From Escherichia coli (GTDB lineage Bacteria; Pseudomonadota; Gammaproteobacteria; Enterobacterales; Enterobacteriaceae): DNA of 64,000 bases. The position numbers and the translations under genes were made by a program. How positions within the stretch are numbered: position 1 is the stretch's first letter; every line of letters starts with the position of its first letter. The stretch lies in NCBI RefSeq assembly GCF_046105845.1, contig NZ_CP151004.1. One strand, given 5' to 3'. A model generated the notes under the pieces. The model was given only the letters and a program-made list of their open reading frames with translations, was not told the origin of the DNA and did not search any database. Below are positions 49,155 to 50,262 of the stretch, piece by piece.

Positions 49155-49555
49155 ATTTTTCCCTAAATAGTCAGTATGTTGAAACTTTTTATTGTGAGAT
49201 TTGTTGCAAAAACCATCTGACCATAACGCCAGCAGCCGGGGAAAGGAAGGATTATCTGCGGTTTTTGTGATGAAAAGCAGGATGATTATATTTAACCCAG
49301 TAAATACGTTCCTGTCGTTTTTTGTAAAAAAAATGTTTATTACGCGATGTAAGAATACATTAATTTTGCGTTTATTATGATGAATCCTCTGCAAATGAGC
49401 GAAATTTGATAGAACATTTATCTGCTGTACGATTTAATAAACTTAATGATACAGCATTACAAAAACAATCGAAGTTTATAAAGATGATTTCTGATTGACC
49501 AGCCCCCTACCCTACAATGGTGACTAATTTTATTACTCCCGAAGGAGATGATGAT

Positions 49556-50041
49556 ATGAATATATCAAATGTGAATAGCAACAACACGACATCTTTACCT
49601 GTAGAGCTAGATACACTAAATAACAAAGGTATCTCTTATGCCAAAGATCTCTTTTTATATATAGAAACACAGTTAAAAATTGCAAAAGATTTTTGTAGAC
49701 CTGGAGAAGAAGTATCAAGTTCTATTGCAAGTACAGTTTTTCACGCATTTATTGATTTAGTTAACAAAATCATGGGTAAGAAAGATTGTATGTATATTTG
49801 CACGCTTTGCTGTTTTGCCGAGGAGGTTAAAGGTGATTATTCTCATTACAGGACCTTTTTATTTGATATTGGTAATCAATATAAGGTTAAACTTACACAA
49901 AGCGGAAAAAAAGAGTTCTCTTTAACTTTAGAATTTAACGATACTATAATTGAATCTCAGATAGTCACAGGCAATAAGGCAAAGCATATTCTTGAGGATA
50001 TAGAAAAATTCTATCGTAACAAACCCGATACTTATTATTAA
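49556..50041 (+). CDS. AT-rich hypothetical protein (161 aa) in the aphA-tyrB interval
   Basis: ORF track 49517..50041; ATG 49556 preferred because of an AGGAG RBS 8 nt upstream; low GC, Asn/Lys/Ile-rich, no recognisable motif. Confidence 0.5.
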   Translation: MNISNVNSNNTTSLPVELDTLNNKGISYAKDLFLYIETQLKIAKDFCRPGEEVSSSIASTVFHAFIDLVNKIMGKKDCMYICTLCCFAEEVKGDYSHYRTFLFDIGNQYKVKLTQSGKKEFSLTLEFNDTIIESQIVTGNKAKHILEDIEKFYRNKPDTYY

Positions 50042-50262
50042 ATTTAATAATGGTTAGATGTGCAAAAATTATTATTCCACACGGTAAAACAGGGAAAAGT
50101 ACTCCAGAACATTGGGATAAACTTAACAAGTTAGAACTAACAACGTTTTATTACCTCTCACGTAGAACGATGGCATCAAAAAAATCATCTATAAAGCAAG
50201 AGTGAAAGCGACGACAGTTTAATTTCACTGCAGGCTGGATAACTCCAGCCTGCTTTCCTGCA

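Follow-up and report, generated by a model that had tools for sequence, protein, structure and literature searches.

The yjbS gene of Escherichia coli K-12 (b4621) encodes an uncharacterised protein of 67 amino acids (WP_001321562.1). The gap between tyrB and yjbS in K-12 is one of 78 'promoter islands' and is bound by H-NS in two data sets, and the K-12 interval has been predicted to be foreign DNA (GIST; Price et al.; PMC3661553). In E. coli CFT073, the KguS/KguR island is inserted between tyrB and aphA (PMC3694859). The aphA-tyrB interval is a known hotspot. The yjbS gene has also surfaced in genome-wide experiments. It is listed among the genes 'essential only by TraDIS' (PMC5821084), insertions in it were depleted in a colistin screen together with those in ydcD, ygeN and the AT-rich orphan yjbL (PMC9687012), and IS1 insertions in it arose in macrophage-evolved clones (PMC4999529). 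No literature on a long form of yjbS or on its expression was found, including searches with ECs5036 and UniProt accessions, and the literature gave no evidence of transcription or translation of a full-length allele in any strain.

Here I analysed a 64,000-nucleotide stretch of the E. coli contig NZ_CP151004.1 (the window), in which an ORF of 161 codons lies between aphA (48441-49154, - strand) and tyrB (50263-51456, - strand). The ORF (49556..50041, + strand; ATG at 49556, TAA at 50039-50041) is on the strand opposite to both neighbours. A Shine-Dalgarno sequence, AAGGAG (49542..49547, + strand), is found 8 nucleotides 5′ of the ATG, and so the 161-residue ORF with a good ribosome-binding site reported in the preliminary description was confirmed. 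In the alignment, K-12 has TGGAG at the Shine-Dalgarno position. An in-frame ATG further upstream (49517) would extend the product to 174 residues and has no Shine-Dalgarno sequence. The predicted product of the full-length ORF is a soluble protein of about 18.5 kDa with a pI of 5.9, and has neither a signal peptide nor a transmembrane or other hydrophobic segment.

How is this ORF related to the yjbS gene of K-12? The K-12 gene starts at the ATG homologous to 49556, and 41 of the first 46 residues of K-12 YjbS (89%) are identical to those of the window protein, after which the frame diverges. It was revealed that the G at 49695, in codon 47 (TGT; 49694..49696, + strand), is deleted in K-12-type alleles. 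This frameshift adds 21 out-of-frame residues before a premature stop codon, and thus yields the 67-residue YjbS. A second K-12 lesion lies downstream, where a run of six A residues (A6) corresponds to the A7 tract at 49906-49912 of the window. The suspicion that the ORF might be a longer version of the K-12 gene is borne out by the homologous start, the shared N-terminal residues, and the 1-bp deletion. These alignments indicate that the window has preserved yjbS in its intact, ancestral form and that the K-12 YjbS is a truncated remnant. The ORF agrees with K-12 YjbS in place, strand, start, and N-terminus and differs from it in length (161 against 67 residues); the long form should be preferred to the 67-residue form in defining the YjbS family. 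I am fairly confident of the explanation taken as a whole, in which an intact ancestral yjbS would be an acquired, H-NS-silenced, and slowly decaying accessory gene.

It was assessed by a chance test whether the long frame could be accidental. The stop-free run of the yjbS frame is 180 codons in length. None of 2000 dinucleotide-preserving shuffles of 49300-50229 reached this length; their longest runs averaged 69 codons and did not exceed 142. Base use by codon position in the ORF is also coding-like (G, 26%, 12%, and 11% at the first, second, and third positions; T, 43% at the third). The 161-codon frame is a genuine coding frame. The earlier remark that the AT-rich DNA contrasts with GC-rich flanks proved accurate, as the GC content is 0.28-0.34 from about 49300 to 50200 and 0.47-0.62 in aphA, tyrB, and beyond, and that of the ORF is 0.30 compared with about 0.5-0.6 in the flanks. 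The AT-rich DNA between aphA and tyrB spans about 1.1 kb, and within it a variable segment of about 0.97 kb with a single gene can be delimited (49294..50261). A 51-codon ORF in the spacer (50050..50205, + strand) was judged not to be a gene, because its frame is broken by indels in other alleles; within the segment, variability is highest in this spacer (pi = 0.067). The best promoter-like match upstream of the yjbS ORF, TTGATA-16-TACGAT (49406..49433, + strand), is a weak candidate, and the number of such sites there is not above the shuffle expectation. A search against Rfam gave nothing meaningful in terms of RNA families.

The variable segment is replaced in the strain 14EC007, the one non-carrier genome that was read (NZ_CP024131.1, 4661000-4682000). 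In this genome, the homology with the window ends at 49293 and restarts at 50262, one base ahead of the tyrB stop codon. The insert between the two breakpoints is roughly 14 kb in length and carries genes for a sensor kinase, a sigma-54 regulator, a transporter, and 2-oxoglutarate dehydrogenase/succinyl-CoA ligase. It is the KguS/KguR island, in exact replacement of the 0.97-kb yjbS segment. The island of 14EC007 shows decay of its own: the sensor kinase gene is interrupted by IS1, a stop codon lies within the sigma-54 regulator gene, and the gene of the TPP-dependent enzyme is frameshifted. The aphA gene of this strain is frameshifted as well. On the other side of tyrB, an E. coli-like contig from the Logan record ERR14034912 (at 5001-6504) has genes for an AAA_28 protein and an NMN-transporter-like protein at the usual place of alr, downstream of tyrB, which points to a second variable junction.

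A GC-rich hairpin with a 10-bp stem and a 4-nucleotide loop lies at 50230..50253. The preliminary description had placed it after the yjbS ORF. The hairpin itself stood up to calculation, with free energies of -24.4 kcal/mol on the + strand and -30.4 kcal/mol on the - strand and a z-score of about -5 on both strands. Its assignment to the ORF fits less well than one to tyrB, as it lies 9 nucleotides beyond the tyrB stop codon and 188 nucleotides beyond the stop codon of the yjbS ORF. There is no U-run 3′ of the hairpin on either strand (the + strand continues with UUUCCUG and the - strand with AGUGAAAUU), and a terminator scan made no call at this site. The kgu haplotype of 14EC007 has a different hairpin at the corresponding place adjoining the tyrB stop codon. 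That the kgu island brings its own hairpin beside the tyrB stop supports the assignment of the window hairpin to tyrB termination. The hairpin at 50230-50253 is thus probably the tyrB terminator, and both of its strands may be used, serving two convergent genes.

Does yjbS have relatives elsewhere? Only Escherichia proteins were found by a word-indexed search across 5.8 billion clusters, and those that appeared divergent were frameshift variants. A profile search of 1.84 billion representatives gave 27 matches, each of them a fragment, a frameshift variant, or an insertion-junction chimera of E. coli yjbS. The members of the yjbS cluster include Shigella flexneri and S. sonnei. In neither collection was a homologue found outside E. 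coli/Shigella. Searches of Pfam, NCBIfam, and PADLOC with the yjbS protein gave no match. PHROGs gave two matches to families of unknown function, one marginal (E = 0.009) and one at E = 0.16, neither significant, and the only match in a PDB sequence profile search was SipA (E = 0.48, not significant). The absence of database families and of relatives beyond E. coli/Shigella upholds the original description of the product as an orphan with no recognised motif. Within the window, no paralogue of yjbS emerged when all ORFs were searched with a profile, and the yjbS protein matched the DUF2713 ORF and the YjcF N-terminus at probabilities of just 0.1-0.2%. A further AT-rich island in the window (35494-36786, + strand, GC about 0.36-0.40) has a 430-residue ORF with pentapeptide-like repeats, which I take to be yjcF; no similarity between this ORF and the yjbS protein was detected. 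The yjcF gene is also listed as a promoter island (PMC3661553).

Several apparent relatives were rejected. The proteins P0023 and P0032 (67-69% identity) looked like distant homologues and turned out to be doubly frameshifted copies. The sole match among species-representative genomes was a locus of Flavobacterium paronense CECT 8460 (NZ_JAUFQN010000013.1), a 9.5-kb contig with the order uvrA-yjbR-yjbQ-aphA-yjbS-tyrB and many frameshifts. It carries a K-12-type E. coli allele, and this error-rich contig evidently stems from contamination with E. coli of the long-read assembly that represents the species. Matches in PLSDB were rejected as evidence of mobility, since they are chromosomal sequences filed as plasmids and several are whole chromosomes, such as NZ_CP134663.1 (4.9 Mb). 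A 17-kb 'plasmid' of Klebsiella oxytoca with a K-12-type yjbS (NZ_CP069917.1) looks like contamination or mislabelling.

Where did the segment come from? It combines a low GC content with a narrow host range and presence/absence variation among strains, features that are expected of horizontally acquired DNA. The published prediction of the K-12 interval as foreign DNA and the orphan status of the gene both support the earlier proposal, made from composition, of a horizontal origin. Of 5426 complete E. coli genomes, 4379 have the interval, and about 20% had no match. The more divergent intact alleles (83-90% identity) are all at the aphA-tyrB locus, with flank divergence at the level of E. coli. 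The dS of the ORF reaches 0.14 between the more diverged alleles, as compared with 0.01-0.05 in the flanks, and diversity in the spacer is 0.067. Since the neutral divergence of the segment at least equals the synonymous divergence of the flanking core genes, the segment was probably acquired from an AT-rich donor before the E. coli phylogroups diverged. Phage collections had no yjbS match and the segment borders have no terminal repeats, direct or inverted; thus, the phage, plasmid, and terminal-repeat checks yielded neither a donor nor a mobility signature. This, like the lack of a homologue elsewhere, would also be expected if yjbS had arisen de novo from intergenic DNA between aphA and tyrB and not by horizontal transfer. 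Against such an origin, the shuffles, at a GC content of 30%, never gave 180 codons without a stop, the structure model described below is a compact, ordered domain, the segment is present in an all-or-nothing manner with sharp borders at 49294 and 50261, and its composition is sharply unlike that of the surrounding DNA. I consider a de novo origin highly improbable.

To describe the state of the gene across E. coli, 40 records were sampled at even steps of the match ranking, of which 39 span the whole interval; the underlying collection is clinically biased. By translation of the ORF, 21 of the 39 were classified, and the other 18 were assigned by identical match statistics and annotation pattern. 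A full-length frame of 161, 167, or 173 residues was found in 15 of the translated records and a broken one in six. The pattern-classified records comprise 12 marked 'protein YjbS', two that are O157-like, and four that resemble verified intact neighbours. In total, an estimated 19 or so of these E. coli records have an intact yjbS and about 20 a disrupted one. It had been proposed at the outset that a frame disrupted in most strains would speak against a gene; with a ratio near 50:50, current function is neither refuted nor strongly confirmed. Small indels have thus inactivated yjbS repeatedly, with roughly half of the carriers keeping the frame.

Two kinds of length change are recurrent. An in-frame 18-bp tandem repeat encoding SYAKD[F/I/L] (49625..49651, + strand) is present in about 1.5 copies in the window, and the alleles of 161, 167, and 173 residues differ solely by one or two extra 18-bp units. 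The strain 1190 has 3.6 copies with a period of 18. The allele of 167 residues is common and occurs, for instance, in OkiPb01689 and EH2252. The copy number of such a unit leaves the frame unchanged. The A7 tract (49906..49912, + strand), on the other hand, is a recurrent frameshift hotspot. It has become A6 on three different allele backgrounds (K-12/L008, L007, and L015), O157:H7 has a 10-bp deletion covering 49903-49912, and a further change at the tract was found in the record L029. A tract of 7 nucleotides is short for a contingency locus. Including the K-12-type G deletion, at least four independent indel lesions were identified. As a separate observation, some 20 codons are missing from a metagenomic allele (P0008) between two AAAGATTT (KDF) motifs, in the region corresponding to 49680-49700 of the window. 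This suggests that deletion between short repeats also occurs within the ORF, beside the 18-bp slippage.

Is the intact frame maintained by selection? The pairwise Nei-Gojobori omega of the yjbS ORF has a median of 0.36 (range 0.15-0.73), and that of aphA and tyrB is 0.04-0.15 in most comparisons, with values of 0.20-0.30 for pairs that differ by only a few substitutions. When every polymorphism was counted once, the 15 distinct intact alleles showed 23 synonymous and 45 non-synonymous ones. These counts correspond to an omega of 0.5 at equal rates and of 0.6-0.75 at a transition bias of 2-4, with p values from 0.008 to 0.15; under a realistic transition bias (kappa 2-4) the p value of the non-synonymous deficit is 0.05-0.15. 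Variable sites number 14, 21, and 27 at the first, second, and third codon positions (p = 0.13). The diversity of the ORF (0.043) is not much lower than that of the neighbouring non-coding DNA (0.028-0.067). Purifying selection on yjbS thus appears weak and barely detectable from these allele comparisons, and it seems strongest in the helical core (codons 46-100), where eight synonymous changes were counted against seven non-synonymous ones.

These figures bear on two readings of the gene. According to one, yjbS is a relic everywhere, whose function ended before or soon after E. coli diversified, and the intact frames survive for lack of time; H-NS silencing would make the loss of yjbS neutral. 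An omega of 0.5-0.75, marginally below 1, is consistent with this reading, as are the four or more independent frameshifts, the replacement of the segment in about 20% of the genomes at no evident cost, and the transcriptional suppression of the K-12 region (PMC3661553). Against it, 78 distinct substitutions have produced zero or one in-frame stop codon where 2.7-4.1 are expected, the ratio of changes in codons 46-100 suggests local constraint, and intact alleles occur on several diverged backgrounds. The repeat-length variants are all in frame too, which the 18-bp unit would guarantee in any case. I regard the relic reading as a serious alternative with a probability somewhat short of even, and I lean slightly towards yjbS being still functional where it is intact.

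The literature on K-12 gives a hint as to how a functional yjbS would be regulated. The segment may be bound and silenced by H-NS, as in the K-12 data sets, where the allele is a broken one, and if it is, the protein would be made only upon relief of the silencing. The published island covers 318 bp of a gap of 502 bp, and 282 bp of this gap correspond to the C-terminal part of the yjbS ORF, now out of frame. Former coding sequence must thus make up at least some 100 bp of the island. The genes ydcD and ygeN, which accompany yjbS in the colistin screen, are also on the TraDIS-only essential list. I infer that the depletion of insertions at yjbS in both types of experiment is a property of the chromatin and not of the gene.

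What might the protein do? An AlphaFold2 model made from an alignment of 11 sequences has a mean pLDDT of 73.9 and a pTM of 0.70. In the model, residues 1-26 are disordered, and the variable SYAKD repeats follow this Ser/Thr/Asn-rich tail. Helices at residues 28-46, 55-71, and 75-87 precede five strands between residues 89 and 138, which form a five-stranded antiparallel sheet, and a final helix covers residues 139-154. The fold resembles no characterised family, and no informative fold match was obtained. A Foldseek search of AFDB50 returned the family itself and then weak matches (E from 3e-4 to 1e-2, TM about 0.45-0.5) to uncharacterised proteins of E. coli, Salmonella, and Shigella; Q8XC25, B7NEY7, A0AAN3TTQ2, and A0A5W0JRV5 are among the matches. 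The Cys cluster CMYICTLCC noted in the preliminary description is indeed present. It is not conserved, as C78 is replaced by F in many intact alleles, C82 by F in the protein P0001, and C85 by R in P0006, and with three of its four cysteines varying between alleles a metal site was rejected. I tentatively suggest, as the weakest commitment made here, that the yjbS product could be a dispensable, conditionally expressed accessory protein that acts by binding a partner, much as effector or immunity proteins do, and is not an enzyme.

Two specific roles can be considered. The protein might be a secreted effector of a type III system (e.g., ETT2 or LEE) or a factor directed at a host or competitor, decaying where the system or the niche has been lost. 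The predicted disorder of residues 1-26, their Ser/Thr/Asn-rich composition with no charge in the first 16 positions, and the location of a low-GC single-gene segment within the core backbone are in line with this idea. The pentapeptide proteins yjbI and yjcF, AT-rich backbone orphans of the same chromosomal region, are reportedly EspX-family effectors. The family and fold searches and the window gave no effector homology, with SipA at E = 0.48, and no link to a type III secretion system, a chaperone, or an effector-carrying prophage, and I consider an effector role quite unlikely. Alternatively, yjbS might be an orphan immunity or defence protein left after the loss of its toxin, or a stand-alone anti-phage factor. 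The match to CdiI that was obtained is a partial one, and dozens of unrelated matches are equally good. No toxin gene or remnant is adjacent, the neighbours being aphA and tyrB, and the PADLOC and PHROG searches described above gave no significant match, all of which makes this role decidedly improbable.

A bolder joint reading would connect many of these features. YjbS would found a fast-evolving family restricted to enterobacteria, functional where intact, with a fold common to its weak Foldseek neighbours. The protein would be made when H-NS is lifted, the A7 tract would act as a heritable off-switch, the number of SYAKD units would tune the protein, and the target would lie in a host, a phage, or a competitor. 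If this were true, such a target would explain both the raised amino-acid diversity of the sheet and the repeated losses of yjbS. I regard this combination as unlikely.

The best reading of the locus is that yjbS is an old, horizontally acquired orphan of E. coli/Shigella, probably silenced by H-NS, that is slowly being lost. The most immediate consequence concerns annotation. None of the 15 intact copies checked is annotated as full-length in RefSeq. They are labelled as a 'frameshifted' 223-bp pseudogene or an 'incomplete' fragment, or are divided into two pieces with an additional 83-residue C-terminal ORF, most likely because the truncated K-12 form serves as the reference protein. GenBank lists the exact window protein under the name 'hypothetical protein EGC31_16015 [Escherichia coli]'. 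Since the reference YjbS is a frameshift product, intact copies of 161-173 residues are mislabelled, and pangenome and pseudogene counts inherit the error. The interpretation of the published K-12 promoter island also changes, because it is in part the out-of-frame remainder of yjbS. The outcome is a modest annotation correction and a documented case of gene decay; no new system or new biology is demonstrated. As a small and clean case of a lineage-restricted gene that is old, silenced, and halfway through its loss, with a mutational hotspot and an alternative island at the same site, the locus is useful for studies of the fate of orphan genes.

In summary, four known systems can be set beside the full-length yjbS. 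The K-12 YjbS shares the interval, the strand, the ribosome-binding region, and the start codon with the window ORF, although it is a frameshift artefact there, whereas the window has an undamaged 161-codon frame. The promoter islands (PMC3661553) have the same AT-rich composition as the window segment. However, the former coding sequence within the yjbS island is not mentioned in that study, and the H-NS binding reported there concerns the broken allele of K-12. The KguS/KguR alpha-ketoglutarate island of uropathogenic E. coli likewise occupies the aphA-tyrB interval and begins right after the tyrB stop codon (PMC3694859), but it is unrelated, about 14 kb in length, of normal GC content, and of characterised metabolic function. 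Thus, it is an alternative occupant and not a relative of the yjbS segment. The fourth is yjbL/yjbM (DUF2713), another AT-rich orphan at a distance of 7 kb, which carries a frameshift in K-12 and is intact in the window, where a single 318-residue AT-rich ORF (57262-58218, - strand) corresponds to K-12 yjbL plus yjbM. RefSeq annotates the K-12 yjbL/yjbM as one frameshifted 'DUF2713 domain-containing protein'. The two genes have no sequence relationship to each other. For DUF2713, the RefSeq reference is full-length and the K-12 copy is correctly marked as frameshifted, whereas for yjbS the reference is the truncated form and the intact copies are marked as damaged.
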